A DNA stretch of 62,998 bases from Bdellovibrionales bacterium RIFOXYD12_FULL_39_22 (GCA_001770205.1 MEQL01000023.1:1-62998), one strand, 5' to 3'. Counted from the first letter of the stretch, positions 1 to 43,126 are shown. Notes: generated from the sequence alone by a model not told the origin. Made by a program: numbers and translations.

Positions 1-146
1 AGGGCCATCTTTCGATGGCCCTTTTTGTCTAAGTTCAAAGACTTAGTCCCCTTTGCAGGGGTGCGAATATGGCAGGGCCATCTTTCGATGGCCCTTTTTG
101 TCTAAGTTCAAAGACTTAGTCCCCTTTGCAGGGGTGCGAATATGGC
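1..146. repeat. Tandem duplication of a 73-bp tRNA-downstream unit (two identical copies, 1-73 and 74-146)
   Basis: AGGGCCATCTTTCGATGGCCCTTTTTGTCTAAGTTCAAAGACTTAGTCCCCTTTGCAGGGGTGCGAATATGGC occurs twice back to back; a third copy is at 21273-21345. Confidence 0.95.
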
Positions 147-155
147 GGGAGCGAA
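74..155. repeat. att-like direct repeat, left junction (includes the 3'-terminal 13 nt of tRNA-Asp)
   Basis: 82-bp identity with 21273-21354; ends in TGGCGGGAGCGAA, the reverse complement of the tRNA 3' end including CCA. Confidence 0.9.
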
Positions 156-339
156 AAAAGACGTACCCGACACTCAACCAATTGATAATCTGATGGAAAT
201 TCTAAAACAGATGGCAACTAATGTAAAGATTAGGGCACTATTTGTAAAATATCAGAGTTTTTCTGGCCAAAAGTAAATTTTGTGCAATCATATATAATTG
301 AAGCTTAAATTATTTTTGCGTTTTTTTGAGGGAGAGGCA

Positions 340-570
340 GTGCTATATCCGGAAAGTTCTTTGGAATATTGGAGTGTAAAATATAATTTACGCGTAAGAG
401 AAAAAACATGTGCCTCTTGCAAAGAAATCTTTAGGACAACTATTCCAATTTTGATTAGAGGTTATGCTGGCCTTGAAACGCCAACTCATGAATGTGGAAG
501 ACAATACAACTCAGCAGTTTTCACCCCGATCACAGAAGAAGCGAAAAATTCTTGGAGCCAAGTATTCTAA
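340..570 (+). CDS. Small hypothetical protein, possible zinc ribbon
   Basis: GTG at 340 after GAGGGAGAGG; CASC and HECG motifs. Confidence 0.55.
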   Translation: MLYPESSLEYWSVKYNLRVREKTCASCKEIFRTTIPILIRGYAGLETPTHECGRQYNSAVFTPITEEAKNSWSQVF

Positions 571-573
571 GTA

Positions 574-1173
574 CTATTTGCCTTTGTAGTATTTCAAATT
601 GTACAGTGCTCTTCTGAGTGAAGCTCTAAAACTTTTTGGTAAAACCAACTCAGACACAGCTTTGGTGACAGTACTTTCAAAAGTACGAAAGAAACCTCTC
701 TTTGTCGCAGATTCTGGATAAAAACCTTTTTTATCTGCACCGTTACCGCCAGAATTATTTTTGGTAAGTTCTACACTTTTTTTAGCCATAGTTCTCATTG
801 AGTAGAGTACCAGTCGCATTGACTCCTCATACGTAGTGGTTCGATCTGTTGAGTCTATTGAGATATCAACTTTTCCTTTGTCATCAATCTCAATCGAGAA
901 TTTTATATCTAATAACTCATTTTTGCGGACGTTATCATCATCAGGGCCACCCAAATGTCCCCATAAAGTGCCTGAAGGTAAGTCAACTTTAATAATTACG
1001 ATGAAAGGCATTTTCTCTTTACGACCTTCTCTAAGATGGTAATGATCCCTATTTGCGATTCGAAGATTTTTTAATAACTGACCATGGTCCTTGTCTGTGT
1101 ACGAGTGTTGGTCAAATTTTAATACTGCTAAGTTTGTTCTCATTTTCAACTCCATTTGTTTTGCGCCCATCAT
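574..1173 (-). CDS. Hypothetical protein
   Basis: 199-aa ORF; no recognised motif. Confidence 0.6.
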   Translation of the reverse strand: MMGAKQMELKMRTNLAVLKFDQHSYTDKDHGQLLKNLRIANRDHYHLREGRKEKMPFIVIIKVDLPSGTLWGHLGGPDDDNVRKNELLDIKFSIEIDDKGKVDISIDSTDRTTTYEESMRLVLYSMRTMAKKSVELTKNNSGGNGADKKGFYPESATKRGFFRTFESTVTKAVSELVLPKSFRASLRRALYNLKYYKGK

Positions 1174-27612: not shown

Positions 27613-27703
27613 TTCCCGACCAAAGCATTTTACTCTGTGGCCTTTATTCTATTCCAAAAAAATGACACTTAAGATTTGAATTACTTTGTCGATAACAATA
27701 TCG

Positions 27704-28342
27704 ATGAATAGTAATCTTCTAAGTATATTTATTTTTGCCTTCCTGCTCATCTTAATAAATTCTTGTGCCAATACAAGGCCATTTCTTAACATTGATGCCA
27801 ATCAAAAAGAAGTCGATGTTTTTGCAAAAACGGCCGGAGAAAAAGAGTTTAAAAAAGTTGGGACGACTCCCTATAAAGTAGAATTCAATGAATTGCGCAA
27901 AACCATGAATCTTAGCAAAATACCAATGGTTTTTGAGATAAGAAAAGCAACCTACATAACTCGCCAATTTGTAGTCGTTGATATGGGAAGTGCCGATATG
28001 AATTTGTATTTTGAATTAGAAGAGAGTCGCGACCTAGAAGAAGTAGATAGAATGAATAAACTCTCCAGTAGACTTTTTGAGGCACAACGATTAATTAGGG
28101 CAAAAAATTATAACGACGGAACCAAGCTACTTGCAGAATTAGCGCAAGAATATCCCTACGCATCTATCGTCTATGAACTACAAGGCGGCCTTTACTATCT
28201 AAAAAAAGAGATGCAAAATGCGTTGGATGCTTTCTCTACGGCCTTAAAGTATGATCCGAAAAATGTAGTGGCCTTTAGAATGAAACGTTTCTTGGAAGCA
28301 AAGCTAAACGTTACCAGGCCATATCAGGAGGAGAAACGATGA
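27704..28342 (+). CDS. PEGA-like plus TPR lipoprotein
   Basis: Lipobox INSC; VGTTP...IRKATY PEGA-like motif; C-terminal TPRs (ALKYDPKN); ATGA overlap with the next gene. Confidence 0.75.
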   Translation: MNSNLLSIFIFAFLLILINSCANTRPFLNIDANQKEVDVFAKTAGEKEFKKVGTTPYKVEFNELRKTMNLSKIPMVFEIRKATYITRQFVVVDMGSADMNLYFELEESRDLEEVDRMNKLSSRLFEAQRLIRAKNYNDGTKLLAELAQEYPYASIVYELQGGLYYLKKEMQNALDAFSTALKYDPKNVVAFRMKRFLEAKLNVTRPYQEEKR

Positions 28343-30312
28343 AGGCCAATAGCGACGCTTTCTTAAAAACCATCTTCCTCTCTTTACTTTTAACTTTTCC
28401 GCTTGTCGCCCTGGACAATGGGCAAGCATCTGTAGAATGGCAAAAAATCCTTTTGGAAGAAAAAATTCAAGGCCATTTACAAAATCTAATTTCAACCATC
28501 TTATTAAAAAATGAATTCACCGTAGTTGCCACTGTCAAAGTAGAATCCCCAGAGCTAACTGATCTTGCGAGTAATGATTCTGAGGGGGAAAATCAAAATA
28601 ATAGTAATAGTGGAATAAAATTTTCAGATATACCGGCCAGCGTTGATGGAGGAGATGACCTAATCTTATTAGAAAAATTGGGGATAGCAGCACCATCATA
28701 TCCTAGCGAAACTCAGGATAAAGCATCACCCATGCTCTTGCAAAATAGCATTAAGGAGCAGGCCGAGTTACTCTCCAAGTTTGATCTCTTTAAATTTATC
28801 ACTGAAGTTTCTATTCGAATCATCATCGACGAAAAAGTTGATAATGCCAAAAAAGATGCTGTAAAAAAACTGCTCTCGGAACTCTCCTTAAAATTTGGAG
28901 AGTTTCAAGCGACTATTGAAACTAAATTTATGGCACTAGACTTTTCAAGCGAACAGGCGCCAATTAAAGAGAAGGTCGTCTGGTGGGAGATACCGCTCAA
29001 ATTTGCCAATGCTCTGGGAATGATTATGGCCGCTATTATTCTATCGATACTAGCGGTTACTCTCTTTAAACGACACCATGCCTTTTTAGAACAGCGCTCT
29101 GAAGATGGAAAATCTGATAACGAGAATAACTCCCAAGCAGAAATTGATGCGGTCACTGCGCTACAAGGTAGCAGTGTCGGAGGCCCTGCCGCAACAGCAG
29201 GAGGAGGCAGCGGAGAGACAAATAATTCTTCGCAATCTTTTTTAAAAAAGGAGAGCGGCCCAGAACGATTTAAAAATTTACTTAAAGAACATCCAAGTCG
29301 CGCCGGCCTATTGATCAAGCGTTGGATCAAGATAAAATCTCCCAAAAGTAGTTGGGGATTATCTCTTATTACGTCTCGCTTAGAAACTAAAGAATTGGCA
29401 TCAATTTTTAAATTGGTTTCAGAGCAAGAACGCAACGAATGGCGACGATTAATTTCTCCTCTAAATTCCAGCGAAGAGTCCGAGGCAGAGTTATTTGTTG
29501 AGGCCCAAATAATGGAAGAATTGCTATCCACTTCGATGCTACCCTTAGAGGCAAACACTCTTCTTTCTTCTCTTTCTATAAAAGATGCTGTGGAATTATC
29601 CTCTAAAAATCTAAAGGTGGGAGTTCTTTTAATCAACAGTATGAATACTCAATTTGTCACATCCCTACTGGCCGGACTGGGGGCCGATACCGTTGCTAAG
29701 CTAATAACCGAAAGTATGAAAGTCACCTCCGAAATCCTTCCTCGTCTTTTTGAGGATATCCGTGGCGAATTAGAAGCAAAATTACAGCGGCCAGAAAAAT
29801 CTCCTTTTATAAAGAGAATTGCCGAACTAATTCCTACTGCCACCCTAGAATTGGAATATGAATTTTGGAATGTTCTAGTTGCAAATCGAGAATTTGCTGC
29901 AATTCAAGAAATTTCTAAAAGCTACTTTCCTTCTCTGTTAATGTCTCAACTTCCTCTTCCTCTTGTTCGACAAACACTAGTAGCATATCCCAAAGCAAAA
30001 CGAATTGAATTTTTCATTTCGCAAGATGCAGATCTACGCAAATTATATATCGACTCTTTTTGCCAAGAGGGATCAAAACTTCGAGAATTACTTGATTTAG
30101 ATATTGATACTATTGAGCGCAATCAGATCTTGGCCCGCAGGATCAAACGCAACGCTAACGAAATTATCAAGGACTTTTACGATTTTAGTCGTCAACTACT
30201 AAGACAAAATCCAGATCTTCAAGACAAAGCACAAGACACAGTAATATCTTGGTTAGAGGAACTCCAAAATAGCGTCCAAGGAACAAAGCAAAAAACAAAA
30301 CTTGCCGCTTAA
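28339..30312 (+). CDS. Putative FliF(RBM3 + C-tail)-FliG fusion protein
   Basis: Signal peptide; split RBM3-like segments LEEKIQGHLQNLI..FTVVATVKV and ITEVSIRIIID..VKKLL..G..IET..F; one TM helix; FliF-C-like EHPSRAGLLIKRWI; then FliG N/M/C-like helical repeats. Confidence 0.65.
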   Translation: MKANSDAFLKTIFLSLLLTFPLVALDNGQASVEWQKILLEEKIQGHLQNLISTILLKNEFTVVATVKVESPELTDLASNDSEGENQNNSNSGIKFSDIPASVDGGDDLILLEKLGIAAPSYPSETQDKASPMLLQNSIKEQAELLSKFDLFKFITEVSIRIIIDEKVDNAKKDAVKKLLSELSLKFGEFQATIETKFMALDFSSEQAPIKEKVVWWEIPLKFANALGMIMAAIILSILAVTLFKRHHAFLEQRSEDGKSDNENNSQAEIDAVTALQGSSVGGPAATAGGGSGETNNSSQSFLKKESGPERFKNLLKEHPSRAGLLIKRWIKIKSPKSSWGLSLITSRLETKELASIFKLVSEQERNEWRRLISPLNSSEESEAELFVEAQIMEELLSTSMLPLEANTLLSSLSIKDAVELSSKNLKVGVLLINSMNTQFVTSLLAGLGADTVAKLITESMKVTSEILPRLFEDIRGELEAKLQRPEKSPFIKRIAELIPTATLELEYEFWNVLVANREFAAIQEISKSYFPSLLMSQLPLPLVRQTLVAYPKAKRIEFFISQDADLRKLYIDSFCQEGSKLRELLDLDIDTIERNQILARRIKRNANEIIKDFYDFSRQLLRQNPDLQDKAQDTVISWLEELQNSVQGTKQKTKLAA

Positions 30313-30328
30313 TAAATCATAACCAGAT

Positions 30329-31267
30329 TTAAAAAAAGACACCCAGTCCAATCTTATCGCGAGGAGCATCTTTGGGATATAATACCTTAATAATTACTCT
30401 TCGATTATGCCGCCGATTTTCCAAAATGGGTTTTCCCAATCCATTAACCTCAGAATAAAGCGGCCTGGCCGATCCAAAGCCGACGGCCACTAATCTCTCT
30501 GGAGGAAATCCTGCCCGTTCAAATTTACGCAAAACATAGGCCGCACGCACGGAGGATAGTTCCCAATTAGAAGGATAAATTTTGCTATTTAATGGCACAC
30601 CATCGGTATGGCCTTCTATCATAATGGGAAAGTTATATCCGGCATTTTTAATTATATCGATTAAAAAATCAATTGACTCTTCTACCTCTCGATCCGGCGC
30701 CACATGGCCTGATTCAAAAAAATTCGAGGAGGTAAAAACAATTTCTAATCCTTGCTCATAGCTAACGGTCACTGTTTTTGAAGAATCAGAAAACTCTTTT
30801 ACTGAGGCCAATAGCTGCTGCATCTGCACTTTTTCTTGTTCGGCCTTTTCCTTTTCTGCTGCTGATTGTTCTAAATCTTGTTTTTGCATCTCTTCACTTT
30901 GCTCACTAGTGCTAGTCGGCGAAGCTGCTTCTGATTGATCCACCATTTCTCCCACAATAGGTTCTAGTACTCGCTCGTTTTTCTTGCCTTGTTTGGTACT
31001 TTTTTGTGAAGCAGAAACATCCACTTCCCCTTTCTCTCCAGAATCCTCAATTAGCGAACCATTAAAATAGCGGGCCATCTCCTGCGCACGCTTTTGAAAT
31101 ATGGGATCTTCATAATTGGCAAAACCCACCAATAAAATGAAAAAACAGGCCATCAGCGACATTAAATCAGCGTAAGAGGTTAACCATGTTCCTTCGGTGT
31201 TGGCCTTGGCCGATGATGAATCATCTAATACTCTGCGTCTTTTTTTTCTCACACTTTGCTCAGTCAT
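30329..31267 (-). CDS. motB: MotB/PomB-family stator subunit
   Basis: WLTSYADLMSLMACFFILL with the channel Asp; OmpA-like IEGHTD, SNWELSSVRA, NRRV. Confidence 0.93.
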   Translation of the reverse strand: MTEQSVRKKRRRVLDDSSSAKANTEGTWLTSYADLMSLMACFFILLVGFANYEDPIFQKRAQEMARYFNGSLIEDSGEKGEVDVSASQKSTKQGKKNERVLEPIVGEMVDQSEAASPTSTSEQSEEMQKQDLEQSAAEKEKAEQEKVQMQQLLASVKEFSDSSKTVTVSYEQGLEIVFTSSNFFESGHVAPDREVEESIDFLIDIIKNAGYNFPIMIEGHTDGVPLNSKIYPSNWELSSVRAAYVLRKFERAGFPPERLVAVGFGSARPLYSEVNGLGKPILENRRHNRRVIIKVLYPKDAPRDKIGLGVFF

Positions 31268-32067
31268 TATCTACCTGCCCTGACACTTTTCCAATCTAAC
31301 CGACTAGATGGAAGTAAGTAGGAATTTAATATCTCGGCCAATAAGATGGGATTAGTTTTTTCTAAGATTAGTTCTACTCCTCGAATAATAATTTTATTTT
31401 TTACAAAAACCTCTTCCGATGAATCGAGCAAGTTTTCACCTACTGGTAAAATGACCATATTTGAAATAACCGCACCGTACAGGGTGGTTATCAAGCAAAT
31501 TCCCATGGCCGGGCCCATTGTTTTCATCGCATCTTTTTCGCCTAAACTTCCTAAGAGAACAATCATTCCAATAGTTGTTCCCATCATTCCAAAGGCCGGA
31601 GGATATTTGGCCAATGACATAAAACGATTAGCGTCCTTAACGTACATACTATTTAAATTCTGGGCCCGCTCATCTAAAATTTCTAACAACCGATCGGCCT
31701 CTGCCACTTCATCAACAATAAGCTGTAGTGACTCTCTTAAAAATGCATCTTTTACGTTGGGAAGTATTTTTTCTAATGATGTTCCCGTGCGATAATCTTC
31801 ACAAACTTGCATTAGCTCTTTGATGGTGACGGCATAATCGGCACGTTTAAAGCGCAGCACTCTACTAAAAAATACTTTTACTAGGCGCAGTACTCGGTCA
31901 AATTGTAGCGCTATGGCCGAAGAAACGATAGAACCGCCCACTACGATGAAAATAGAAATTAAATCAAAAAAAACTTTGATTCCACCTGAATTTTGCGCCG
32001 ATAGCTCCAAGCTGAAATAGAGAACTATCGATCCAGCAATCATTGCTAGCACGGCATATATATTCAT
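31267..32067 (-). CDS. motA: MotA/PomA-family stator subunit
   Basis: IVVGGS, DAFLRESLQLIVD, PAFGMMGTTIG, MGPAM..LITTLYG; 266 aa. Confidence 0.93.
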   Translation of the reverse strand: MNIYAVLAMIAGSIVLYFSLELSAQNSGGIKVFFDLISIFIVVGGSIVSSAIALQFDRVLRLVKVFFSRVLRFKRADYAVTIKELMQVCEDYRTGTSLEKILPNVKDAFLRESLQLIVDEVAEADRLLEILDERAQNLNSMYVKDANRFMSLAKYPPAFGMMGTTIGMIVLLGSLGEKDAMKTMGPAMGICLITTLYGAVISNMVILPVGENLLDSSEEVFVKNKIIIRGVELILEKTNPILLAEILNSYLLPSSRLDWKSVRAGR

Positions 32068-32124
32068 ATTCTAACTCCCTTCATAAACTCCTTACGGATA
32101 CAAAATAGATACAACCTAATTATA

Positions 32125-33780
32125 CTAGAACAATCCTCCCAGTGACAGTAGGAAGGAGTCTCCCTGTATAAGCAATTCTCCATTTGTATCATTTCGCACA
32201 AGATCTGTTTTGAAATACTCGCCAGAAAAAGTTGGACGAATTCCAAAGTAGCGGCGAAAAAAATTAAAGCGATATTTCACACCATATGAATATCCATTTA
32301 ACCCCTCTCCACCAACAGAAATTGGATAGCGAAAAAGCAACTGAAGTGAATGCGAATACAGCTCCAATGCTGGCCCCAATTCTGGCCATAATATCGAAGA
32401 AGAATTCAGTTGTACTCCTTCCCAAATTCGATTTAGTGCAAAATAGTCAAACCTCGACCAATCAAGGCCACCAAAAATATAAAAATAGCGAAAAAGTGAG
32501 CTGGCCCAAACTACTTCAAAAGATAGTCGATCTGGTGGAGTTTTAGGTTCCGTGGATAAAAAACTTACATAAGAAAGCTTAACTCCCCAAAGATCTGGGA
32601 AACGTACATTGGGCCTTCTAAAACGCAAAAAACCATATCCCCCAAGTGAACGTAACGACGCATCCACATTAACAATCCCCAAAGATATTACGTTTTCTTG
32701 TAAAAACCCCAAGGTTCCAATCATCCAAAACTTCCATGGCCCAAAAAAGGAAAAATCATTTTGATAGAAACTATTTGCCTGCGAGGTCGATTTTCCAACG
32801 TTCCAGGTCTCCTCCGCTCTTTTGGCCACATTCCTCGCATCGCTCTTAGAATTTTCTTCCTCGTTTTGTAAGGCCAGCGCTGTTTCTATTTTATCTTGTC
32901 TGCTCGTAATCTCTTCAATAGGAGGCGCTGTTTCTCCATTCTTTATTTGTTTTATGCGACTGTTTTGTTCATCTATTTTTAATATAATCAACTTGCCCTT
33001 GTTATCAATCTGTTCGCTTAATTTTTTTTCCACCCGCCGCCGCTTTTGCTTAGACATATCTATATCAATATCGCGATCAACTAGTAGGTCATATAGGTTT
33101 AGTCGTTGCTTCATCTTTTCTAACTTAACAGCGGCCGCAGCTGGAGAGAGTTGTGAAATGGCAACAGTTTCGGCCTCAATGTCAAGATTACTGGCCTCTC
33201 CTAAAAAAGAGTTACTAACCTCTTTGGTGATCTCTTCTTGTTTTTTTAATTCATTTCTAATTTCGGCAACTCTCTTTTCTGCTTCTAATTTGAGAGGTAT
33301 TTCATTATCTTCTACAAATTTTTTCCCAAAAATAAATTCGTAGAGCGCAAAACGTAATCTCGATACAATCTGATCGCGCGGAACCCAAATTTTACGCAAA
33401 GATTTAACTTGTTTGACGGCCACTCCTTCAAAAAGAAAAAGTTGCAACCGATAATACTTCCCTATTCTCTGGGTACGAATTTTATATTTTAAAATAAATT
33501 GTTCTTCGATATTCTCCGGAAAAAATAGTGGTACTTTATTAAAAACCAAAAGATATTTTTGTGAACGCAACACTACATCAATAACATTCCGCTTGAGTTC
33601 ACGACGAAGGCCATCCAAACTATCTGGTAACTCACTATCAAATAAAAAAAGCGGTGGATTCTCTGATACCCTATTTTGCTGCTCAACTTTTTGCCCATAT
33701 GATTGTGCGGGCCATCCAACAATAAGATAAAATAGCACGACAAATCGCAAAGTTGTTCTAAAAATAAAACAATACCTCAT
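32125..33780 (-). CDS. Secreted protein with a coiled region and C-terminal beta-barrel-like domain
   Basis: Signal peptide (..AQSYG/Q); amphipathic strands; ends LSLGGLF; co-oriented upstream of motAB; start uncertain. Confidence 0.65.
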   Translation of the reverse strand: MRYCFIFRTTLRFVVLFYLIVGWPAQSYGQKVEQQNRVSENPPLFLFDSELPDSLDGLRRELKRNVIDVVLRSQKYLLVFNKVPLFFPENIEEQFILKYKIRTQRIGKYYRLQLFLFEGVAVKQVKSLRKIWVPRDQIVSRLRFALYEFIFGKKFVEDNEIPLKLEAEKRVAEIRNELKKQEEITKEVSNSFLGEASNLDIEAETVAISQLSPAAAAVKLEKMKQRLNLYDLLVDRDIDIDMSKQKRRRVEKKLSEQIDNKGKLIILKIDEQNSRIKQIKNGETAPPIEEITSRQDKIETALALQNEEENSKSDARNVAKRAEETWNVGKSTSQANSFYQNDFSFFGPWKFWMIGTLGFLQENVISLGIVNVDASLRSLGGYGFLRFRRPNVRFPDLWGVKLSYVSFLSTEPKTPPDRLSFEVVWASSLFRYFYIFGGLDWSRFDYFALNRIWEGVQLNSSSILWPELGPALELYSHSLQLLFRYPISVGGEGLNGYSYGVKYRFNFFRRYFGIRPTFSGEYFKTDLVRNDTNGELLIQGDSFLLSLGGLF

Positions 33781-33874
33781 ATCAGGAGGATAACTGAACC
33801 AGACAATATCAACTACCATTGGCAAAATATTCCCCTTCTATCATTGGCCTGAACATCATGGGATAATTGTTAGC

Positions 33875-34567
33875 ATGAGTAGATATAATAAATTGCTAAC
33901 CTTTTTTTCCAAGAAAAAATTATCCACTGGCGAAGAAGACGCTCTAAATCGCCTTATCCAAAAGTTTCAAGACGCAGAACTACTTGCGGGCCCAACAGCT
34001 CAAACTTCTTGCTCTATTTTGGAACAGGAAAAAATTGAACTTCCATCTGACTCTTCCTTTCCTCCCCCGTTGCCTCAAGGCGTGGCAACCGCAAATAAGG
34101 CCGTGACAACTGCCAAGAACCAACCCGAACCTCTCCCACCACTTCCTGCAGTGCCCACAAAAAAATCCAAAAACAGGCGGGAAAAAAAAGTGCCCGGACC
34201 TAGACATATGACGATATCAAGCAACTCCGCAAATGACCTCCGAGAAATTTTAAAGAAAAATTTTAACACCTCTAATATTCAAATTTCTCGTTACGCCGAC
34301 AATGAATCTATGTTGACCACGGTACATTTTGAACGACAAGAGAACTTTTCGGCAGAAGAAATTCGCATTTTAGAAGAACTCCTCGTACCTTTGCGAGGGC
34401 AAATTAAAAAGTTTGCCGGCGAATTAGATTTTGTAAATCCACTAACTAAAGAGAGTCTTGCTAACCAACTTACTTTTGTTATAATTCTCCCTCTTGACTT
34501 ACCTACTCCTGGGGCCTCTTCCTCCAAAAGTCGAAGAGTGTCGGCCTCTGGCGCAGATACCACATGA
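33875..34567 (+). CDS. Hypothetical protein with a Pro-rich linker
   Basis: 230-aa ORF with an ATGA overlap to the next gene. Confidence 0.6.
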   Translation: MSRYNKLLTFFSKKKLSTGEEDALNRLIQKFQDAELLAGPTAQTSCSILEQEKIELPSDSSFPPPLPQGVATANKAVTTAKNQPEPLPPLPAVPTKKSKNRREKKVPGPRHMTISSNSANDLREILKKNFNTSNIQISRYADNESMLTTVHFERQENFSAEEIRILEELLVPLRGQIKKFAGELDFVNPLTKESLANQLTFVIILPLDLPTPGASSSKSRRVSASGADTT

Positions 34568-35208
34568 AAAAAAAGTTTATCCTAAAAATCTTTTACCTGA
34601 TAATCACCATTTTTATCTTTGCTGCCCCCTTAATGGCAGAAAATAAATCTGCTTCTCCCTTTGCTCCACTCTTATCCGGACGAATGGGCGTATCCATGGT
34701 CAGTTTTGCCCAAGTTGCATCCTCTTCCGAAGGAACTGCCACCGAAAGCGTTGCCGCCGCCCCGGAAAGCGGAAGTATCTCCACCACTATTGCCTCTATA
34801 CAATATGAAATTTTCCAAAACAATACTCGCTCATTTTTTTTTAACGGCGTAGGATCAATCTCCACTACCAGTCTAGACAAGTATTACGCCATTGGCCTAG
34901 GTATGAATTGGTATCTAAACGGCGCGGCGGCCCTGGCCACCTTTTTAGATAGTGGTATGAAAATTCAGATCGTTCCTAAAATTCGTTATTACGCTGGAAT
35001 TGATGTACTCGGACGCTATCTGGCCTACACAACCAGTACCGAAACCCGTGGAGATGTGGGTTTTGAAATTGGCGGACATCTTGGGGCCATCTATGGTATC
35101 GACGACATTCGTGGAATAAAAGCAGAGGCCGGAGTCTTTCAAGGCGTAGGAATTGAAACCAGCTCTACCAATATTCAAATTATGCTGGGTGGAACTTATT
35201 TCCTATAG
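34564..35208 (+). CDS. Small outer-membrane beta-barrel protein
   Basis: Signal peptide (..PLMA/E); about 8 amphipathic strands; ends GGTYFL. Confidence 0.75.
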   Translation: MKKKFILKIFYLIITIFIFAAPLMAENKSASPFAPLLSGRMGVSMVSFAQVASSSEGTATESVAAAPESGSISTTIASIQYEIFQNNTRSFFFNGVGSISTTSLDKYYAIGLGMNWYLNGAAALATFLDSGMKIQIVPKIRYYAGIDVLGRYLAYTTSTETRGDVGFEIGGHLGAIYGIDDIRGIKAEAGVFQGVGIETSSTNIQIMLGGTYFL

Positions 35209-35218
35209 CATCTTAATT

Positions 35219-38200
35219 TCAATCCGAAGGAATGGGAACTGCGCAGCGAACTCCGGTGGCACCTCTAATTTGATCAATTAATCTTCCTAAATTAAGCGTA
35301 TAGCGCGAAGAGGCATTGGCCGACCAATTATAACCGGAGAGAAATGTCATATAGCTATTAACCGTATTATTAAGAGGTAAAACATAAAATCCTCCATCGT
35401 TAGGAAAAACATAAGTTGCTCCTGCAATAATGGGTGTTTTCCAAGTCATAATCATATTATCATCAGGACTTGTTCCCCCACAACTATCCCCACTACAAGA
35501 GAGACCTAATCCCAAAACAGGCGAGAAAAAATTGGCATTATTAAAATTTTTCCAATCATAAAAGGTTGTTGACGGAGCAGTTGCAATACCAACTGCTGAA
35601 AACTCTAAATAGTTCCCATCACCATTTCTTAAGTTCTCTTTGTTTGCAGCATCTATTGAAGGTATTATATCCGCAGTACAAGTTGTTAAGTTACAAAAAA
35701 TTTGATCTGAGTTTAACTCTTCTATATTCCCCGTCATATCCTGGATACCATATCTAGATTGACAATTTCGTGATCCCCAGGTTCCGTTAGACCCCGTGCG
35801 CAGGGCCCTTGAAGCATTTGTGTTTACACTGGTCAAAGTACCAGGATATCTGTCATCACTGTAGTCGTTGTTGGCAAAATTTCCACCTTTTAAATTGGCA
35901 TTGCAATAGGTATCTGTACCGCTACCATCTTCCACGCTTCTGATTGCTACCCCACTCCCATACATATATCGTGGAGCTGTGTAACTGGCCGCAAGTCCAG
36001 TAGCACGCTCTCCCCAATCCTGTGCACGCCAAGCAGCGGCAGAAATAAACTCTTTCCGGCGCAAAATACGTTTCCCATACTCTACAGCGGTGGAGTTGGT
36101 TGTGATATTTATTTTTGTTCCCTGACAAATTCGCCAAGCGGCGGTGGCCTGGCCAATATAAACAAGAGGTGGAAGATAAGCACGATTTGATGCTATTTTC
36201 TCTGCATTGGCCTCAACTCTATCCAGCGAAACATCCGCAATTCTTTTCCAGCTTGCTCCAGGTGTCTCTACAAAAGGGTCTAATCCTTGAATTGAACAAT
36301 AGGGATTGTCCCTACGATAATAAACGGTATATTGATCGGCCACCGCTACTGGATCACCTGTTCCCAAGCAAGCACCACCACTACAGCCAGTGGTGGAAAA
36401 ATTACAACCCACTTCAAAACGATCAACTAACAAGTCATGCAACATATCGTAGTAGCGAGGAGATCCTGGCCCTGTCTGGCCATCCTCTAAAACAGATGCC
36501 AGGCCGTTATACTCACACTTATAGTTGTCGCTGGGCAAAATAGGCCGATGCAATATCTCACACATCTCTTTATTGGCCATCATCCTATGCATCAAGGCCA
36601 TATTCTCCGGAGGTAGTATGACACGAACTACACTAGGATGAGTGTTGGCCCCACTGTAAAAATTAAGTTCAGTTCCATCATAATCGACCACCACTTTAAA
36701 CCAATAGGTCGTTCCCGGGGCCATTCCAGGTAACTGCACCATCTGGCCATCAATAGCAACAGAGCCAAAAACGATCTCATATTTACTAACCCCAACAGAA
36801 ATAGGGATGGTGGCCACTTCTGTGAAAGGCCCACTTTCCGAAATAGTTGAATAATAGACCTTCTGAGTTACCAATCCTCCTGCTGCAAAGTCTGAAAGTG
36901 GTCTGGTACTACCATATATGGAAAAAGCGTCCCATTTAAGACGAATAATTCCGGAGGTACTTCCCGCTGGATCCTCGCGATAATTTCTAGTTAACGGATC
37001 AAGTGACTCTGCGATAACTGCACCATTTGCAAGGCCAGAAGTCTTCGGCCCAATAGCAAAAATATCATCCCAGCCATTGTGTCGTAATTCTGGATTAGTG
37101 GTTTTACAGGAATTATCTGTTGCGACTGCCGAAGCATTAACTCTAAAAATTTGTCCCTCACTATTTTGATAATAGGTAGAAATACCAATTTGATAGTTTG
37201 TTGCAAAAAATGGTAGGCCCACAAGAGCATAGGATGTCTCTAATCCACCGGCCAAAATCATCACTTTATGATAAACACTCTCTGCGGTGTCACTGATAGC
37301 ATCTGCAAAACTAAATGCACTGCTTCCATTATACTCGGCAGCACTATCTTTGTAGAAAACTTCATAATGGGTGAATACTCCATTATTAGTCGGACGATCC
37401 CAACTAATCTCCAGCGAATCAAAAGTTTGATTTTCACATAAATTTTTTATTCCGCTAAAATCAGGGGCCGTATAAGTAGGTTTACCACAACGAACCACTT
37501 GCCACAAAATTGTGCGCGGTCCAAGGATAGGATGTAACGGCGAAGACGAATATGGTTTCAATACAAAACAAACTGTCTGATCCGTACGAACACCTGACAC
37601 CTGAATCGAGGTTGATTTAGTAGAAAGTGGAGTGGAAGAATCGATATATATACCATTGGGATTAGCGGAAGAGTAGGCGGTAATTTGAGATTGTATCCCA
37701 GATAACGAATCATTGTTGTCGATAGGGTCTCCATTACTATCAACACGAAATAAACGATACTCGTTAAAGGCGCCGGAAGCACTATCAGCGGCATACCAGC
37801 TAAGGATTAAAGAAGTTAATCCTATTGTCCCTTCCGGTTGTGTAATATTATCGCGCAATCCATCAAAAGGAGCTACCGGCGGCGTAGTCGTAATCAAAGA
37901 TGATTGATTCTGTCCCAACATGTCAGACCCCGAACATTGATCAGAACTTCTACAGGCCACCACATAAACGTAATAATTAGTATGTGGATCGAGTCCACTA
38001 ATCCGGCCTTGCAAGTAGTCAGAGGTTAAAGTAGCTTTGCGATATAATTCATCCTTTGCAGGATCTACTGGCCGTGCTTCTTTTAAAGCATAAAGACGAA
38101 ACTCGCTACAAGCAACACATGCCGGCCAAACGACATCCGCTTTGGTAAAACCATCAACATTATTCGGAATAGTGGCCGAAGTAATCCCATCAAACTCGAT

Positions 38201-38992
38201 TGGCCGATCCGTCAGCGTCTTAGCAAAAATGTACTTCTCATTTAATTCAAATTGATTTGGTGATGCCGAATTGCGTGCACGCACTGTTATATAATGGCCC
38301 TCTCCTGGAACTAGCGGGATAGAAGAACCCAAAATATATTCTGCTGCCGAAGGATTATTTAGCGACACTGTGTAAACATTATTGGCCAAATTATCCATCA
38401 ATTGCGCTAATGTATTAGCGTAATATATGTAGTAACCGGAAATACTATGATCAGAAGAAAAAACATCACCAATTATGATTGTTGGCCGAGAAGCAGGAAT
38501 CCATTGAAGCTTCAGTTGCGTCATGGCCTCTACCCCGGGCATATTACTCACTAACTGCAGTCCTTCAAAAACAGGAAGATGAAATGGAGCTGTGGAAATA
38601 ACTATGCCGTCAGTTCTCTCACTGTAGATATCATTTTCTACATCGTATGCTTGCATACTTATGTGATAAGCAGTATTGACTCGCAAGTCACTGATGGTCA
38701 AAGAAAGCAGGCCCTCTCCATCAACGACCAAAGTTTCCGCGGGAACTGAGGCGGCAGGAACCGTACCGCCATTTAGAAAGGCGTGATAATAGTAACTGCC
38801 AGATCCACCTGTTGCGCCCTTAAATTTAATCATTATCTTGGTATCAGAAATATATTTACCAGAACTTATTCCTGTCAAACTGACACTCTTAACCGCCACT
38901 TCTTCTGCCTTATTCGCCCCACTTTTGCGAATTGAACCAACACACGACAACAGAAGCTGAGACGAAATTATAGCAAAAATTAATATTTTCAT
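35219..38992 (-). CDS. Large surface lipoprotein: FN3-like repeats plus a C-terminal FGE-sulfatase/C-type-lectin-fold domain
   Basis: Lipobox LLSC; repeated P.F.G...L.W...Y..Y modules; DRFEVGC, CQSRYGIQDMTGNIEE, terminal GVRC. Confidence 0.8.
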   Translation of the reverse strand: MKILIFAIISSQLLLSCVGSIRKSGANKAEEVAVKSVSLTGISSGKYISDTKIMIKFKGATGGSGSYYYHAFLNGGTVPAASVPAETLVVDGEGLLSLTISDLRVNTAYHISMQAYDVENDIYSERTDGIVISTAPFHLPVFEGLQLVSNMPGVEAMTQLKLQWIPASRPTIIIGDVFSSDHSISGYYIYYANTLAQLMDNLANNVYTVSLNNPSAAEYILGSSIPLVPGEGHYITVRARNSASPNQFELNEKYIFAKTLTDRPIEFDGITSATIPNNVDGFTKADVVWPACVACSEFRLYALKEARPVDPAKDELYRKATLTSDYLQGRISGLDPHTNYYVYVVACRSSDQCSGSDMLGQNQSSLITTTPPVAPFDGLRDNITQPEGTIGLTSLILSWYAADSASGAFNEYRLFRVDSNGDPIDNNDSLSGIQSQITAYSSANPNGIYIDSSTPLSTKSTSIQVSGVRTDQTVCFVLKPYSSSPLHPILGPRTILWQVVRCGKPTYTAPDFSGIKNLCENQTFDSLEISWDRPTNNGVFTHYEVFYKDSAAEYNGSSAFSFADAISDTAESVYHKVMILAGGLETSYALVGLPFFATNYQIGISTYYQNSEGQIFRVNASAVATDNSCKTTNPELRHNGWDDIFAIGPKTSGLANGAVIAESLDPLTRNYREDPAGSTSGIIRLKWDAFSIYGSTRPLSDFAAGGLVTQKVYYSTISESGPFTEVATIPISVGVSKYEIVFGSVAIDGQMVQLPGMAPGTTYWFKVVVDYDGTELNFYSGANTHPSVVRVILPPENMALMHRMMANKEMCEILHRPILPSDNYKCEYNGLASVLEDGQTGPGSPRYYDMLHDLLVDRFEVGCNFSTTGCSGGACLGTGDPVAVADQYTVYYRRDNPYCSIQGLDPFVETPGASWKRIADVSLDRVEANAEKIASNRAYLPPLVYIGQATAAWRICQGTKINITTNSTAVEYGKRILRRKEFISAAAWRAQDWGERATGLAASYTAPRYMYGSGVAIRSVEDGSGTDTYCNANLKGGNFANNDYSDDRYPGTLTSVNTNASRALRTGSNGTWGSRNCQSRYGIQDMTGNIEELNSDQIFCNLTTCTADIIPSIDAANKENLRNGDGNYLEFSAVGIATAPSTTFYDWKNFNNANFFSPVLGLGLSCSGDSCGGTSPDDNMIMTWKTPIIAGATYVFPNDGGFYVLPLNNTVNSYMTFLSGYNWSANASSRYTLNLGRLIDQIRGATGVRCAVPIPSD

Positions 38993-39005: not shown

Positions 39006-42000
39006 TTAATCCTCTGTCACATCTACCGCACATCGAACCGCCGCGGCCCAACCTTCATTTGGTCTAGAAATTATATCTGATGAAAAACGGCCGGCCCCAG
39101 AACCACTGTCCCACTTGCCCCCGCTATACATATAGCGAACAAAGGTATTGGGGACTATATTGTTTAGAGAGATGATTAATCTGTCACTGTTATATGGGAA
39201 AGTAACATACGTCGCCCCCGAGGACTTGGCGGTTATCAACTTATTATCGTCGTCTGGTTGAATATCACACGTACCACTCGCACAGTTAAGCGAAAGGCCA
39301 AGTGCTGGTGAAAAATAATTTGCATTAATGGGGCTAGCGTATTGCCATTCCGCAGTTCCCGTTACCGAAGTGGCCAAACCAGTAGCAGAAAATTCCAAGT
39401 AATTTCCATCCCCATTTTTCAAAGTCTCTTGTGCTACGGCATCTAGTGGAGTGGTAACATTGGCGCTACAGGTAATATTTGGACTATTATATTCACAATA
39501 AACTTGGTCAGAAGTCATATCCCAAGCATTTCCAATCATGTCTTGCAACCCATAGCGAGATTGACAATCCTTACTGCTATAAGCTCCATTAGAACCAGTT
39601 CGTAAAATATATATAGAATCCGCGGGATCTGCTGCCCCCGGATAACGATCGTTATCCTCAAAAGTATCCAAAGGCCAATTTCCACCTTTGTTATTATTAT
39701 TACAAAAACTGGTAGTGGTGTTGCTGGTATATTCAACCGTTGTTATATCGTAATGATTTCCATAAATATAGCGCGGCCCTGTCAAACTTTGGGCCGGCCC
39801 CGTGGCCGCTGCTCCCCAGGGATCTGAACGCCAAGCGGCAGCTGCAATAAATTCTTTCTTGCGTAACATCCTTCTATTAAAACTTGATGCCTCTCCATTG
39901 GTAGTAAGCGAAATAGAAGTACCTTTGCATAAGTTGTATCCTCCTAACTCTTGAGTGATACGCATCAGTGGTGGTAAATAGGCCCGTGTTGAGACAATCT
40001 CTTCTGCCGCTGCTTCAACAACCACTGCCCCCAATCCATTTATCTCTTTCCAATTTGAGCCACTAGGAGAGTTTTGCTGCATGGAGCAGTAGCCATTATA
40101 ACGATTATAATAAATTGCCCCTTGAACGGCAGAATATCCCAAGGTTAACGGGTTACCAAGGCCAATGCAGGGTGCAGAGACTCCTCCAACTATGCAGTTA
40201 ACTTTTCTAAAGTTGCAACCATTTTCAAAACGATCAATCAACATATCATTTTGAATATCATAATAGTGAGTTCCGCCGTCTAATATGGAGGTAAGTCCGT
40301 TAAATTCACAACGATAATTACTTTCTTCATCTACACTCTTATGCAGCATTGCACACATCTCTTGATTGGCGATCCAGCGATGCATCAAGGCCATATTATC
40401 TGGCGGCAAAATAACTCTGGCCACTTCGGGATGTGTACTCGTGGCATGAAATGCCAGATCTACCCCGTCAAATCTTCCAATAATTTTGAACCAATATTTT
40501 ACTCCAGGAGTCATTCCTAAAAATGCCACCATGGCCGCACTATTATCCGATCCTAAAATAAGTTCATATTTGGAAGTTCCATACACCGTTGGGACCGAAG
40601 CAATGTGCACAAAAGAACTACTGTCTGTTGCCGAAACTGATGACGCATACACCTCATAAGAGACAGAACCGGCGGCAGCAAAATCCGAAAGCCTTAGTGC
40701 CGAATTAGGGATACCAAAATCTTTCCAAACTAACCTTATAATCCCACTGTTACTTCCGGCAATATCCTCTTTATAGTTTTTCGTTACAGGATCAATAGAT
40801 TCTCGCACTACTACTTTTTGAGCGGAATCCAAAACCAGGCCAGAAGTTTTTGGCCCAATTGCAAAAATGTCATCCCAACCTCCATGAACTAATTCTGGAT
40901 TTGAGGTAATACAAGCATCGGTTGCAACCTTAGAATTATTTACTCGAAAAATACCACCTATTCCATTGTCATAATAGGTGGAAACCCCAATTTCATAGGC
41001 AGTACTAAATGCCGGAAGATTTCTTATTTCATAGGGTAACGCCACTTCTGCGTCTACTACGATACGATGGTAAACACTATACTCGTCGTCTGCAATCGCG
41101 TCGTCGTAACGAAAATCGTCATGGCCATTTTCATAGACGGCATCCTTTAACTTATAAAATATTTCGTAATGAGTAAAAATACCACTTGATGGCCGAGTCC
41201 AATTAATCGATAGAGAGTTAAATGTTTGATTCGTACAAGCAGTATCCACTCCATTAAAATCAGGAGCAGCATAAACAGGCTTTCCACACCTAATTACTCT
41301 TGAACTTAAAGTACGCGGGCCACTGGGGTGTGCCGGAGAAGTAGAATACGGCAAAAGAACAAAGCAAGAGGTTTCATCCGTTGGTAATCCCGCAACCTTT
41401 ATACTCGTGGAGGCAACATTAAGTGGTGTGGCAGCATCAATGTATGCGCCACTTGGGTTTGATGAAGAGTAAATTGTAATCTGTGACTGAACTCCCGCAA
41501 GTACAGGGTTATTATCCACGGCCTCTCCATCTTCTTTCACCCTAAATAGTCGGTACTCGTTAAAAACTCCGCTCGCGGTATCCGCCGGCAACCACGACAG
41601 TGTCAAAGTGGTCAGTCCAACAGTACCTGCTGGTTGTGTTATACTTTGAATACCATCGAAGGGAGAAACAGGAGGGGTAGTGGTAGCATCGCGATAGATA
41701 TTGTTCCCCATAACATCTTCTCTCTCTGAACAACGGGCAGCATCTCTACAGGCCACAACGTAGATGTAATTGGTAGTATGCGGAATTAATCCACTGATTC
41801 GATGAGAAAGTGTCGTTGACTCCAACGTGGCCATTAAAAATGCACCATCTTTATCAGGATCGACGGCCCGCATCTCATTTAGCGCATATATCCGAAATTC
41901 ACCACAGGCAGTGCAACTGCCCCAAGAAACATCTACCTTAGTAAAACCATCCGTGTTGCTGGGAACTACGGCGGCCTCAATACCGGAAAATTCCATTGGA

Positions 42001-42824
42001 CGATTCAAGAAAGTTTTGGCAACAACGTAATGCTCGTTTAACTCATATTTGCTAGGACTCGCGGAATTTTTGGCCCGCATAGCGATATAGTAAGTTGCTC
42101 CTGGAGTTAGTGGTGTCGATTCACCCAAAATGTATTCTGCGGCAACAGGGTCAGAAAAAACAATGGGTGCCGCTTCCGCAACATCTGCAGAGTGTAATTT
42201 GGTGAAAAGTTCATCTAAGGAGGTAGCGTAATAAATGTAGTAACCGGAGATAACATGCTCGCCAGAAAATGGGTCACCGATAATTATATCCGGAGAAACT
42301 GCTGGAATCCACTGCAGCTTTAATTGTGTCATAGCAGCAACTCCCGGCATATTAGCAGCAGTTGCCACCCCTTCAAAAACTGGTAAATGGTTGGGAGCGG
42401 TCGAAACAATTATCCCTTTGGTTCTATCGCTCAGTTTATCATTGTCTACGTCGTAGGCCAGCATGCTTATGTGGTAAGCGGTGTTGACGCGCAAATCACC
42501 AATTTCCAAATAAAGTTCTCCATCCGAATTCTCTCGCAACAGTTCAGATGGTATCGAGACTGAAGGCTCCGTGCTACCGTTTAAATAGACCCGATAGTAG
42601 TAAACTCCGGAACCACCGGTGGCAGCGTTAAACTTAACCATAATTTTAGTATCCGAAATATATTGGCCAGAAGTAACCCCGGCAAAGGATAGCGGCTTGG
42701 TGTTTACCAGCTGTACCTTGTCTGTCCCACTCTTGCGAATAGAACCGACGCACGAAACAAGCAGTGTTGTAACCAGCAAAATAATTATCGACAAAACGGT
42801 AGTAAAAATTTTATTTGCGCTCAT
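39006..42824 (-). CDS. Large surface lipoprotein, tandem paralogue of 35219-38992
   Basis: Lipobox LVSC; colinear with its neighbour (SCVGSIRKSG, YISDTKIM, WDDIFAIGPKTSGL); CQSRYGLQDMIGNAWD, terminal VRC. Confidence 0.8.
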   Translation of the reverse strand: MSANKIFTTVLSIIILLVTTLLVSCVGSIRKSGTDKVQLVNTKPLSFAGVTSGQYISDTKIMVKFNAATGGSGVYYYRVYLNGSTEPSVSIPSELLRENSDGELYLEIGDLRVNTAYHISMLAYDVDNDKLSDRTKGIIVSTAPNHLPVFEGVATAANMPGVAAMTQLKLQWIPAVSPDIIIGDPFSGEHVISGYYIYYATSLDELFTKLHSADVAEAAPIVFSDPVAAEYILGESTPLTPGATYYIAMRAKNSASPSKYELNEHYVVAKTFLNRPMEFSGIEAAVVPSNTDGFTKVDVSWGSCTACGEFRIYALNEMRAVDPDKDGAFLMATLESTTLSHRISGLIPHTTNYIYVVACRDAARCSEREDVMGNNIYRDATTTPPVSPFDGIQSITQPAGTVGLTTLTLSWLPADTASGVFNEYRLFRVKEDGEAVDNNPVLAGVQSQITIYSSSNPSGAYIDAATPLNVASTSIKVAGLPTDETSCFVLLPYSTSPAHPSGPRTLSSRVIRCGKPVYAAPDFNGVDTACTNQTFNSLSINWTRPSSGIFTHYEIFYKLKDAVYENGHDDFRYDDAIADDEYSVYHRIVVDAEVALPYEIRNLPAFSTAYEIGVSTYYDNGIGGIFRVNNSKVATDACITSNPELVHGGWDDIFAIGPKTSGLVLDSAQKVVVRESIDPVTKNYKEDIAGSNSGIIRLVWKDFGIPNSALRLSDFAAAGSVSYEVYASSVSATDSSSFVHIASVPTVYGTSKYELILGSDNSAAMVAFLGMTPGVKYWFKIIGRFDGVDLAFHATSTHPEVARVILPPDNMALMHRWIANQEMCAMLHKSVDEESNYRCEFNGLTSILDGGTHYYDIQNDMLIDRFENGCNFRKVNCIVGGVSAPCIGLGNPLTLGYSAVQGAIYYNRYNGYCSMQQNSPSGSNWKEINGLGAVVVEAAAEEIVSTRAYLPPLMRITQELGGYNLCKGTSISLTTNGEASSFNRRMLRKKEFIAAAAWRSDPWGAAATGPAQSLTGPRYIYGNHYDITTVEYTSNTTTSFCNNNNKGGNWPLDTFEDNDRYPGAADPADSIYILRTGSNGAYSSKDCQSRYGLQDMIGNAWDMTSDQVYCEYNSPNITCSANVTTPLDAVAQETLKNGDGNYLEFSATGLATSVTGTAEWQYASPINANYFSPALGLSLNCASGTCDIQPDDDNKLITAKSSGATYVTFPYNSDRLIISLNNIVPNTFVRYMYSGGKWDSGSGAGRFSSDIISRPNEGWAAAVRCAVDVTED

Positions 42825-43126
42825 ACGTTCCTCATCGACACACTGGCGCAATATCTTAACCGGCCCAGTGCCATCAATGACGATATTCTATGCCTGAAAT
42901 GCCCCCAAATTGTTGCGCACATAATTTTCAATAAGTTGCCCACTTCGAATCAAAGAAAAACTTATCTAAACTGCCCAGAAAAGTTGGCAGTCTTACTTTT
43001 TTTTAGGCCACTAAATACCCAGTATAAACAGTTCAACTATTTGAAAATAAGCAGCAAGAACAATAGACGCATCTTCTGGCCAAAATAACGGTAATATTGA
43101 GGGTGATTACTGACGAGGAGATCTTC

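Follow-up and report, generated by a model that had tools for sequence, protein, structure and literature searches.

Within a 62,998-nucleotide stretch of DNA from a predatory Bdellovibrio-like bacterium, Bdellovibrionales bacterium RIFOXYD12_FULL_39_22 (the window), an open reading frame (ORF) of 657 codons on the plus strand (28339..30312) joins in one polypeptide a FliF-like part, comprising the third ring-building motif (RBM3), a transmembrane (TM) helix and the C-terminal tail, and a FliG-like part with all three domains of that protein. The product of this fusion gene is probably the rotor subunit in a motor of flagellar type that operates outside the flagellum: a rotor that is most likely non-switching and driven by the stator encoded beside it. 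Together with the stator genes and a set of genes for envelope proteins, the fusion gene seems to specify a rotary machine that is made of flagellar motor parts and has not been described before. To our knowledge the flagellar rotor is known only within the flagellum, around the type III export gate. If the interpretation is correct, then the module shows the flagellar torque generator put to a second use, and offers a minimal system for ring assembly and for stator–rotor coupling in which a 1:1 stoichiometry is set by the fusion; it would bear, too, on the origin of the flagellar motor, that is, on whether a rotor–stator pair can exist without an export apparatus. A search of the literature, with supplements outside its scope, found no description of a natural non-flagellar FliF–FliG fusion or of its module, and neither is treated in the accessible part of PMC13277936.

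Domain composition of the fusion protein

The domain composition of the protein, its conserved columns and its gene linkage are direct observations. Its parts are as follows (coordinates are those of the window; the evidence is given in parentheses).

28339..30312, plus strand: the whole chain of 657 residues, FliF(RBM3)–TM–FliF tail–FliG (family profile, AlphaFold2 model, structure search)
28339..28416, plus strand: residues 1–26, signal-peptide-like or TM1-like hydrophobic segment (hydropathy; helix 4–27 of the model)
28420..28542, plus strand: residues 28–68, first half of a split RBM3, with helix 32–51 and strand 60–68 (profile and VIA-align)
28543..28797, plus strand: residues 69–153, insertion at the position of the FliF beta-collar, mostly of low confidence (predicted local distance difference test, pLDDT; hhalign)
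28798..28941, plus strand: residues 154–201, second half of RBM3, with strand 154–164, helix 169–181 and strand 192–198 (model, VIA-align)
29002..29076, plus strand: residues 222–246, TM helix, equivalent of FliF TM2 (hydropathy; profile and hhalign alignment to the TM2 region)
29077..29247, plus strand: residues 247–303, charged Gly/Ser-rich linker, predicted to be disordered (pLDDT <50 for 262–301)
29248..29334, plus strand: residues 304–332, FliF C-terminal tail motif, RF...P..A..L[IV]K.W[IL] (profile and hhalign)
29341..29526, plus strand: residues 335–396, FliG N-domain-like (VIA-align against Salmonella FliG)
29536..29838, plus strand: residues 400–500, FliG middle-domain-like, EHPQ lost (VIA-align, profile match to 3ajc, column counts)
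29845..30294, plus strand: residues 503–652, FliG C-domain-like, with P531 at the MFXF position and the charged helix 579–590 (VIA-align, column counts)

The gene was first remarked upon in an earlier note, made from sequence alone, that described a natural single-chain FliF(RBM3)–FliG rotor lacking RBM1 and RBM2. All of the segments that it quoted were located at the expected places in the translation: LEEKIQGHLQNLI (residues 39–51) and FTVVATVKV (60–68) in the first half of RBM3; ITEVSIRIIIDEK (154–166) and VKKLL (175–179) in the second; EHPSRAGLLIKRWI (317–330) in the tail; LASIFKLVSEQER (353–365), VGVLLINSM (427–435), LLAGLG (443–448), YFP (529–531), LMSQLP (534–539) and VRQTL (543–547) in the FliG-like part; and SKLRELLDLDID (579–590) as the charged helix. 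These segments coincide with conserved columns of the family alignment. Since the protein has exactly two hydrophobic segments (residues ~6–26 and 218–246; 19-residue Kyte–Doolittle mean >1.6), its topology would be a signal-like or TM1-like N-terminus, followed by ~190 periplasmic residues, one TM helix and ~410 cytoplasmic residues.

The gene is no chance reading frame: an exhaustive HMMER search of 1.84 billion representative sequences gave 312 relatives at E<=1e-3, of which 237 reach E<=1e-10 and 126 reach E<=1e-30. The majority have 620–750 residues and align from end to end; the closest is 35% identical. A word-indexed sequence search returned only a 427-residue fragment identical to the query, and in a phmmer search of the PDB with the single sequence nothing relevant was found (best match titin, E 0.54). 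The family alignment used throughout holds 137 of the 150 relatives listed, those omitted being mostly shorter partial rows, plus one of 568 residues. Among 32 relatives scanned, no FliF or FliG model of Pfam was matched at E<=0.01.

A profile of the family, compared to sequences in the PDB, matches both flagellar proteins. The strongest match is to Thermotoga FliG-MC (3ajc, E 4.8e-10, profile 399–574). The Vibrio FliF–FliG fusion 8z4d follows at E 1.3e-8, with four stretches in collinear order: profile 25–73 on FliF 273–320, profile 182–316 on FliF 462–596 (TM2 and tail), then the FliG N-domain, and then FliG M/C. Further matches are to Salmonella FliG (E 1.1e-6), to the start of RBM3 in Vibrio FliF (8z5s, E 2.2e-3) and to Salmonella FliF (6scn, E 0.026, profile 226–315 on 466–558, again TM2 and tail). 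The first half of RBM3 falls on FliF 257–304 or 273–320, and the tail motif aligns with the C-terminal tail of Vibrio FliF in 8z4d, with Salmonella FliF 466–558 and with FliF from the same phylum up to residue 560.

Alignments were also compared directly with hhalign, against 31 FliF and 31 FliG sequences taken from Bdellovibrionota genomes (including the host's own genome); the E-values are each for one pairwise comparison. For FliF the probability is 86.9 (E 4.2e-6), with family columns 43–331 on FliF 244–560, which takes in RBM3 from its start onwards, the collar region, RBM3b, TM2 and the C-terminal tail. For FliG it is 93.8 (E 1.8e-7), with columns 296–583 on FliG 19–305. Both signals are clear only with alignments on both sides: against the single FliG of the host genome the comparison is weak (E 1e-4, probability 58).

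Structure prediction leads to the same two proteins. The AlphaFold2 model built from the 137-sequence alignment has a mean pLDDT of 84.2, with 437 residues at >=90; low-confidence stretches are 78–128, 204–213 and 262–301, the first and last of which fall below 50. From the single sequence the pLDDT is 40. Foldseek gave no match to the model at E<=1e-3, but each of the ten rows at the top of its list is a FliF or FliG entry. Realignment of that list places model residues 28..201 on FliF 230..438 and 335..637 on Salmonella FliG 4..329 (Z 10.2, 283 aligned); the match of 28..201 has Z 10.4–10.8 in this comparison and the next. A VIA-align run over 48,161 PDB representative chains, independent of Foldseek, has Salmonella FliF RBM3 at the top, with 99 residues aligned between model 28..201 and FliF 230..438 (Z 10.8, root-mean-square deviation (rmsd) 3.9), and Vibrio FliF in the next two places (Z 10.7, then 9.8; ranks 1–3 have rmsd 3.6–3.9 over 94–99 aligned residues). 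Ranks 4–7 are Aquifex FliG (9.3), Helicobacter pylori FliG_M (8.8; rmsd 2.5, 79/80 aligned), Thermotoga FliG-MC (8.8) and Salmonella FliG (8.7); T. maritima FliG_C is matched at Z 7.7 (rmsd 2.5, 89/89 aligned). In these structural alignments the identity to canonical FliF and FliG is 7–14%. FliG domains N, M and C, all three of them ARM-like, are present in order. Profile, profile–profile and structure comparisons all match FliF and FliG, and the checks proposed by the earlier note (profile comparison and an AlphaFold monomer) therefore support its view of a fused FliF(RBM3)–FliG chain; similarity to FliF RBM3 and to FliG was found in both kinds of search.

In the model the first two strands of RBM3 (60–68 and 154–164) are separated by an insertion, which is exactly at the place of the FliF beta-collar. 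The 85 residues of the insertion lie opposite the collar region of FliF in hhalign, but are fewer than in FliF and carry a conserved motif of their own, D-[YF]-[IV]-x-[FL]-S-K-[LF]-G-[LI]-[ED]-A-P at residues 107–119 (D107 in 96/137 sequences, K113 in 134/137, G115 in 117/137, P119 in 124/134). As had been claimed, RBM1 and RBM2 are missing: the match opens at FliF residue 230, which corresponds to residue 28 of the protein, so that there is no room for them. The FliF-type tail with its Trp is present by alignment – R/K310 in 132/137, F311 in 120/137, A322 in 109/137, K/R327 in 130/137 and W329 in 134/137 – and is a putative binding site for FliG_N.

The FliG-like part combines retention with loss. 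In the charged helix, which the earlier note had placed at the torque-helix position, K580 falls on the FliG Arg and D588 on the FliG Asp/Glu, and the charges are conserved (K/R580 in 104/136, R/K582 in 113/137, E/D583 in 134/137, E/D588 in 135/137): the assignment fits. The EHPQ motif is, as stated there, not recognizable. The corresponding columns (423–426) hold E/K/D, then N/D (His in 14/137), then Pro in 59/137, then E/D (Gln in 9/137), and the protein itself reads KNLK. The MFXF hinge is replaced by [YFN][FL]P[SA], in which the Pro (P531) is invariant (137/137). Nor does the protein reach the curated Pfam scores of the FliF and FliG families. Because it lacks RBM1/2, EHPQR, MFXF and these scores, we file it apart from both families, as a distinct fused variant whose mode of action is most likely that of the flagellar rotor.

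Compared to the rotor of the flagellum, then, the fusion shares the split RBM3, a TM helix, the Trp tail, the N–M–C order of FliG and a charged helix at the torque position; it differs in being one polypeptide without RBM1/RBM2, probably with a single TM helix after signal cleavage. It also resembles the engineered FliF–FliG fusions (the full-frame fusion of Salmonella; that of Vibrio, PDB 8z4d/8z4g) in being a single chain with 1:1 stoichiometry, and is collinear with the Vibrio chain. According to the accessible parts of PMC6079021 and bioRxiv 10.1101/2023.02.06.527414, such engineered fusions assemble rings. They keep full-length FliF with RBM1/2 and act in the flagellum, whereas the present fusion is natural, truncated and encoded outside a flagellar cluster.

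The C-terminus of the family consists of small residues (-AA in 79/137 sequences, -VA in 22, -AS in 11), and the 657-residue protein ends in LAA (30292–30312), an ending like that of the ssrA tag. Judged from sequence, a cytoplasmic C-terminal degron allowing controlled turnover of the rotor is possible.

Neighbouring genes and their distribution

The fusion gene shares one neighbourhood (27686–35208, both strands) with genes for a TPR lipoprotein, an outer-membrane barrel, MotA and MotB; three genes for giant lipoproteins follow.

27686..28342, plus strand: PEGA-TPR lipoprotein, likely start Met7, lipobox Cys27; its stop overlaps the rotor start
30329..31267, minus strand: MotB-type stator subunit, with plug, TM Asp in YADL and OmpA-like peptidoglycan-binding domain (Pfam)
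31267..32067, minus strand: MotA-type subunit of the PomA/MotP (four-helix, flagellar) kind (Pfam MotA_ExbB 3e-16)
32125..33825, minus strand: 566-residue secreted protein with an aromatic last residue, probably an outer-membrane protein (inferred from sequence)
33875..34567, plus strand: 230-residue proline-rich protein without signal peptide (ORF)
34564..35208, plus strand: 214-residue small outer-membrane beta-barrel (Pfam OMP_b-brl in homologues)
35219..38992, minus strand: giant lipoprotein of 1257 residues with FN3 repeats and a conserved Cys-rich C-terminal domain (Pfam fn3 5.1e-14)
39006..42851, minus strand: giant lipoprotein of 1281 residues, a paralogue of the 1257-residue one (Pfam fn3 5.1e-17)
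43097..47347, plus strand: giant lipoprotein of 1416 residues with eight choice-of-anchor-D / ASH-type immunoglobulin (Ig) repeats (NCBIfam choice_anch_D 2.7e-57)

The ATG of the fusion gene shares four nucleotides (ATGA) with the stop of the PEGA-TPR lipoprotein gene, and the two genes appear to be translationally coupled. PEGA was found in 21/51 and TPR_2 in 38/51 homologues of the lipoprotein, and OMP_b-brl in 5/39 homologues of the barrel (best E 6.8e-6). The 566-residue protein matches no Pfam or NCBIfam family; its homologues stand beside MotAB in 16/80 loci. For the proline-rich protein no blastp homologue was found in the 94 related loci examined. No flagellar Pfam family besides MotA/MotB is present among the ORFs of the window: unlike flagellar clusters, the surroundings of the fusion gene hold no fliM/fliN, export-gate, rod or hook genes, and the partners are the PEGA-TPR lipoprotein and barrels.

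The stator genes motB and motA lie downstream of the fusion gene and are convergent with it. The MotA-type protein has four TM helices with the PxxG and Pro motifs, and the MotB-type protein has the plug, the channel Asp and the OmpA-like domain (Pfam MotB_plug 8.5e-11, OmpA 3.5e-12): a stator of the flagellar, PomA/MotP type. The NCBIfam models stay below their cut-offs in both cases, for MotA at PomA 9.5e-36 and MotP 2.4e-35, for MotB with the MotD/MotB models. A profile of the MotA subfamily matches Clostridium MotA (4.8e-49) and PomA (2.6e-40) in the PDB, and the Arg aligned with PomA R88 is kept in 7/8 aligned members of the subfamily. A phylogeny of MotAB (PMC12505986) separates flagellar from generic stators; the context of a fusion gene is absent from its accessible part. 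Four further MotAB pairs are found in the genome, on contigs 7, 31 (two) and 39, making five. The pair on contig 7 is the closest to the subfamily of the neighbouring pair (E 4.4e-97) and has neither fusion gene nor giants within ~10 kb.

By gene content (canonical FliF/FliG) the host is flagellated. The canonical fliF and fliG genes are on contig 39, separate from the contig that carries the fusion, and a genome-wide scan with PF01514 returned the canonical gene alone. A stand-alone protein of 143 residues on contig 4 (L002:1495-1926, minus strand), away from flagellar genes, passes the cut-off of Pfam FliG_C (55.1 bits). The genome also holds a second copy of the fusion gene (contig 55, 73042-75108, minus strand; locus L016:7382-10982), 24% identical, which lies between a PEGA-TPR gene of its own upstream and a barrel gene downstream, followed by the gene for a 2370-residue protein.

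Of 13 loci of relatives, 12 have the TPR gene immediately upstream of the fusion gene, 8 have the barrel gene adjacent to the TPR gene and 7 include MotAB. Loci were also collected around MotA (the best 80 of 379 relatives of the MotA subfamily in species-representative genomes), nearly all from Bacteriovoracaceae, Halobacteriovorax, Bacteriovorax, Oligoflexia and Bdellovibrionales. With 10 kb from MotA as the limit, 53 of the 80 contain the fusion gene, 42 the TPR gene and 34 the barrel, and giants appear in 32, 20 and 11 (best match to the 1281-, 1416- and 1257-residue protein, respectively); many of these loci end early at contig ends. Five loci that show giants, MotA and MotB and no visible fusion gene were tested further, and the fusion gene is present in all five genomes (5/5). 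In all five the coordinates are compatible with the same contig record and, provided the contig records are identical, it lies 16.6–17.8 kb from MotA, past the giants, which therefore lie between the rotor and stator genes there, just as they adjoin these genes in the present cluster.

The distribution of the module is patchy. The fusion gene occurs in 42/301 genomes of the phylum (E<=1e-10) and in 33/91 of the family (E<=1e-20), where presence and absence are split inside genera. Because kin genomes are not independent, counts of fusion gene and giants are given without a statistic.

Several loci (L023, L042, L046, L047, L096 and L102; L088, L091, L092, L097, L105 and L106) encode related forms of other lengths. 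Cytoplasm-only forms of 355–416 residues match profile 271/299–634 (tail motif and FliG part). Some are preceded by an ORF of 511–516 residues of no known family; considered, for the forms of 355–368 residues, as a supplier of the missing ring part, this ORF gave no Pfam family and an hhalign E of 0.41. Forms of 750–866 residues with an extra N-terminal part occur in Oligoflexales and Pseudobacteriovorax. In the ESM Atlas there are look-alike clusters of 500–620 residues, with members that carry FliG_C, FliG_M and YscJ_FliF_C, and proteins of 220–240 residues with YscJ_FliF_C alone; the commonest recorded phyla of the look-alikes are Pseudomonadota, Elusimicrobiota, Balneolota, Bacteroidota and Myxococcota. 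We treat these look-alikes beyond the phylum as leads.

Mechanism and alternative explanations

Mutants in which FliF and FliG are fused are able to rotate. From the domains and their linkage we infer that the present protein forms a ring, that the ring rotates and that it does so without switching. RBM3 would assemble the protein into an inner-membrane ring in which FliF and FliG parts are fixed at 1:1, and the ring of FliG_C domains would face MotA5B2 units of the PomA/MotP type, held on the peptidoglycan by MotB, with the conserved charged helix turned towards their cytoplasmic loops. Ion flow via the channel at the MotB Asp would turn the MotA pentamer, and this in turn would drive the ring. 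With RBM1/2 missing, a type III export gate would have nowhere to sit, and the load of the ring would therefore have to come by the Sec pathway. Switching by the CheY/FliM route, which the earlier note had already doubted, is unlikely, since there is no EHPQ(R), an invariant Pro stands at the MFXF position and the cluster has no fliM/fliN.

The most likely recipients of the output, in the periplasm, are the PEGA-TPR lipoprotein and the small outer-membrane barrel. In this lineage the output may also reach the three giant FN3/Ig lipoproteins. Candidate tasks may be surface gliding, movement of adhesins or some other task in the envelope. The conserved loop motif within the disordered insertion resembles a docking peptide, for which, as a guess, the TPR protein is the candidate binder; a co-folding prediction of the periplasmic domain (28–205) with the PEGA-TPR lipoprotein (28–218) gave a score of 0.03, which weighs neither for nor against binding.

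A more far-reaching proposal, which we consider unlikely, is that of a rotary envelope machine without type III export, rod, hook or filament, whose ring turns the Sec-exported PEGA-TPR lipoprotein and barrel and, in Bacteriovoracaceae, moves the three giants along or across the outer membrane: it would be the missing gliding motor and adhesin set of Bdellovibrio-like predators, comparable to GldLM and the GldJK belt. As set out in the accessible part of a review of gliding (PMC13104615), GldLM pushes a GldJKN belt, and the gliding machinery of Bdellovibrio remains unidentified. With the Bacteroidota gliding and type IX secretion system (GldLM acting on the outer-membrane lipoproteins GldJ/K/N) the module has in common an ion-driven motor of the 5:2 type encoded with outer-membrane lipoproteins; unlike that system, it has no GldL/GldM homology and would have a large FliG-type rotor ring, as predicted from the genes. 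We put the link to gliding forward as a hypothesis and not as a result. In a bolder version, the module may descend from a rotor–stator pair older than the union with the export apparatus.

Several observations weigh against a rotor of this kind. With its sequence alone no Pfam family is found at E<=1, NCBIfam returns nothing relevant (no flagellar model at E<=1), and in scans of the whole genome YscJ_FliF_C (PF08345) finds canonical FliF only, missing the fusion gene, while FliG_C (PF01706) finds canonical fliG and the 143-residue protein and not the fusion gene. The hhalign comparison with the single FliF of the host genome is not significant (E 0.15), the sequence signal for RBM3 by itself is modest (E 2.2e-3), and in the FliG N-domain the hhalign register is about one ARM repeat off the structural alignment, after which the domain was placed at ~335–396. 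The RBM fold is moreover common: OsmC-like proteins are matched from Z 8.3, PrgK at 7.5, EscJ at 7.0 and SpoIIIAG at 6.7. A structural match by itself is therefore no proof of FliF ancestry, and the case rests also on the co-located profile matches, the insertion at the collar site and the collinear order of TM2, tail and FliG. As regards the stator, the acidic partners of the PomA/MotA Arg are not at the same positions in the MotA subfamily; MotAB is not in view in 6/13 loci of relatives, nor at the second copy in the host genome, where the contig ends 1.3 kb beyond; and with five MotAB pairs in the genome, service of the fusion rotor by the neighbouring pair is presumptive. The C-domain of the giants is more widespread than the fusion gene: it is found in 65/91 genomes of the family, in 30/33 with the fusion gene and in 35/58 without it. 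Lastly, the case for ring formation and rotation is one of homology only.

Four other explanations were considered. A static, membrane-anchored scaffold or decoy, which binds stator units or other proteins so as to regulate or park them, or which senses the ion-motive force, would make use of the same cytoplasmic half, given that a fused FliG with a conserved charged helix could bind MotA without rotating, and the -AA ending, with its hint of controlled proteolysis, would fit a regulator. Yet such a protein has no need of RBM3, of a conserved periplasmic loop motif or of dedicated outer-membrane and lipoprotein partners, and in most loci a stator pair of its own adjoins it; we regard this explanation as quite improbable. 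Decidedly improbable in our view is an accessory or alternative rotor part of a real flagellum, for instance an extra ring or a second type of rotor for a sheathed polar flagellum. In its favour, the host is a flagellated bacterium with five MotAB pairs, and the adjacent stator is of the flagellar PomA/MotP kind; against this, without RBM1/RBM2 there is no link to the export gate, motAB are the only flagellar genes in the window, the constant partners are Sec-exported envelope proteins, and the distribution is patchy (the 33 of 91 family genomes noted above), compared to FliF_C in 7/7 family genomes sampled.

That the cytoplasmic half is a Mg2+-sensing or regulatory domain of the MgtE-N type, and resembles FliG through a shared superfamily only, we hold to be very improbable. 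MgtE_N is the sole Pfam family found in the relatives (weak matches in 13/32 at E<=0.01, with the gathering score exceeded in three) and is in the same Pfam clan as FliG, and MgtE-N structures, which share the ARM-like helical repeats, are among the fold matches (2oux at Z 5.5, 8gpv at Z 4.1). The matches to FliG are stronger, however, and cover all three domains in order; Pfam finds no CBS domain and no MgtE transporter (channel) domain on the protein; and the three-domain order, the conserved charges of the torque helix and the conserved FliF tail motif, next to a MotAB pair, point to FliG rather than MgtE. Hardly any credence can be given to a decaying fliF–fliG duplicate without present function. 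Identity to canonical FliF/FliG as low as that in the structural alignments and the loss of RBM1/2 speak for such a duplicate, but the family comprises 312 representative clusters, mostly of full length and with invariant or near-invariant columns, the ORFs are intact, synteny is conserved in dozens of genomes and the host itself carries two intact copies.

Giant lipoproteins and a low-GC region

The three giants (35219–47347) have in common a Cys-rich C-domain of ~480 residues; those of the 1257-residue protein and the neighbouring giant are 48% identical. Further copies of this domain are found in the genome on contigs 36, 54 and 61. Weak similarity to the FGE-sulfatase family is present in the C-domains of the 1281-residue protein (20.5 bits) and the 1416-residue protein (22.2 bits), both below the cut-off of 23.3, and in 3/9 members of the C-domain family at E<=0.05. 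A profile of the C-domain reaches FGE/SUMF1 in the PDB only at E 0.2–0.5, and phmmer with one of the C-domains found no match there. The FGE-sulfatase fold is that of GldJ/GldK in the Bacteroidota gliding machine. The giants were considered as counterparts of GldJ/GldK and not accepted as such: no NCBIfam model for these proteins is matched and the FGE signal is under every threshold, which leaves a lead only.

Outside the C-domain, the 1416-residue protein also matches the HYDIN/VesB Ig family of Pfam (5.8e-38). Besides choice-of-anchor D, NCBIfam gives for this protein a DUF11-type repeat and an unrelated antiporter-subunit model, both above E 1e-5; it gives no model for the 1257-residue giant, and for the 1281-residue giant only an unrelated threonine ammonia-lyase (E 0.095).

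At the other end of the window, positions 1–18200 form a low-GC stretch (0.31–0.36, compared to ~0.42 further on) in which most ORFs belong to no family. Among them are genes for two phage-type integrases, a DUF5906 protein and a SIR2-like protein, and the stretch is probably a mobile or defence island that has become integrated.

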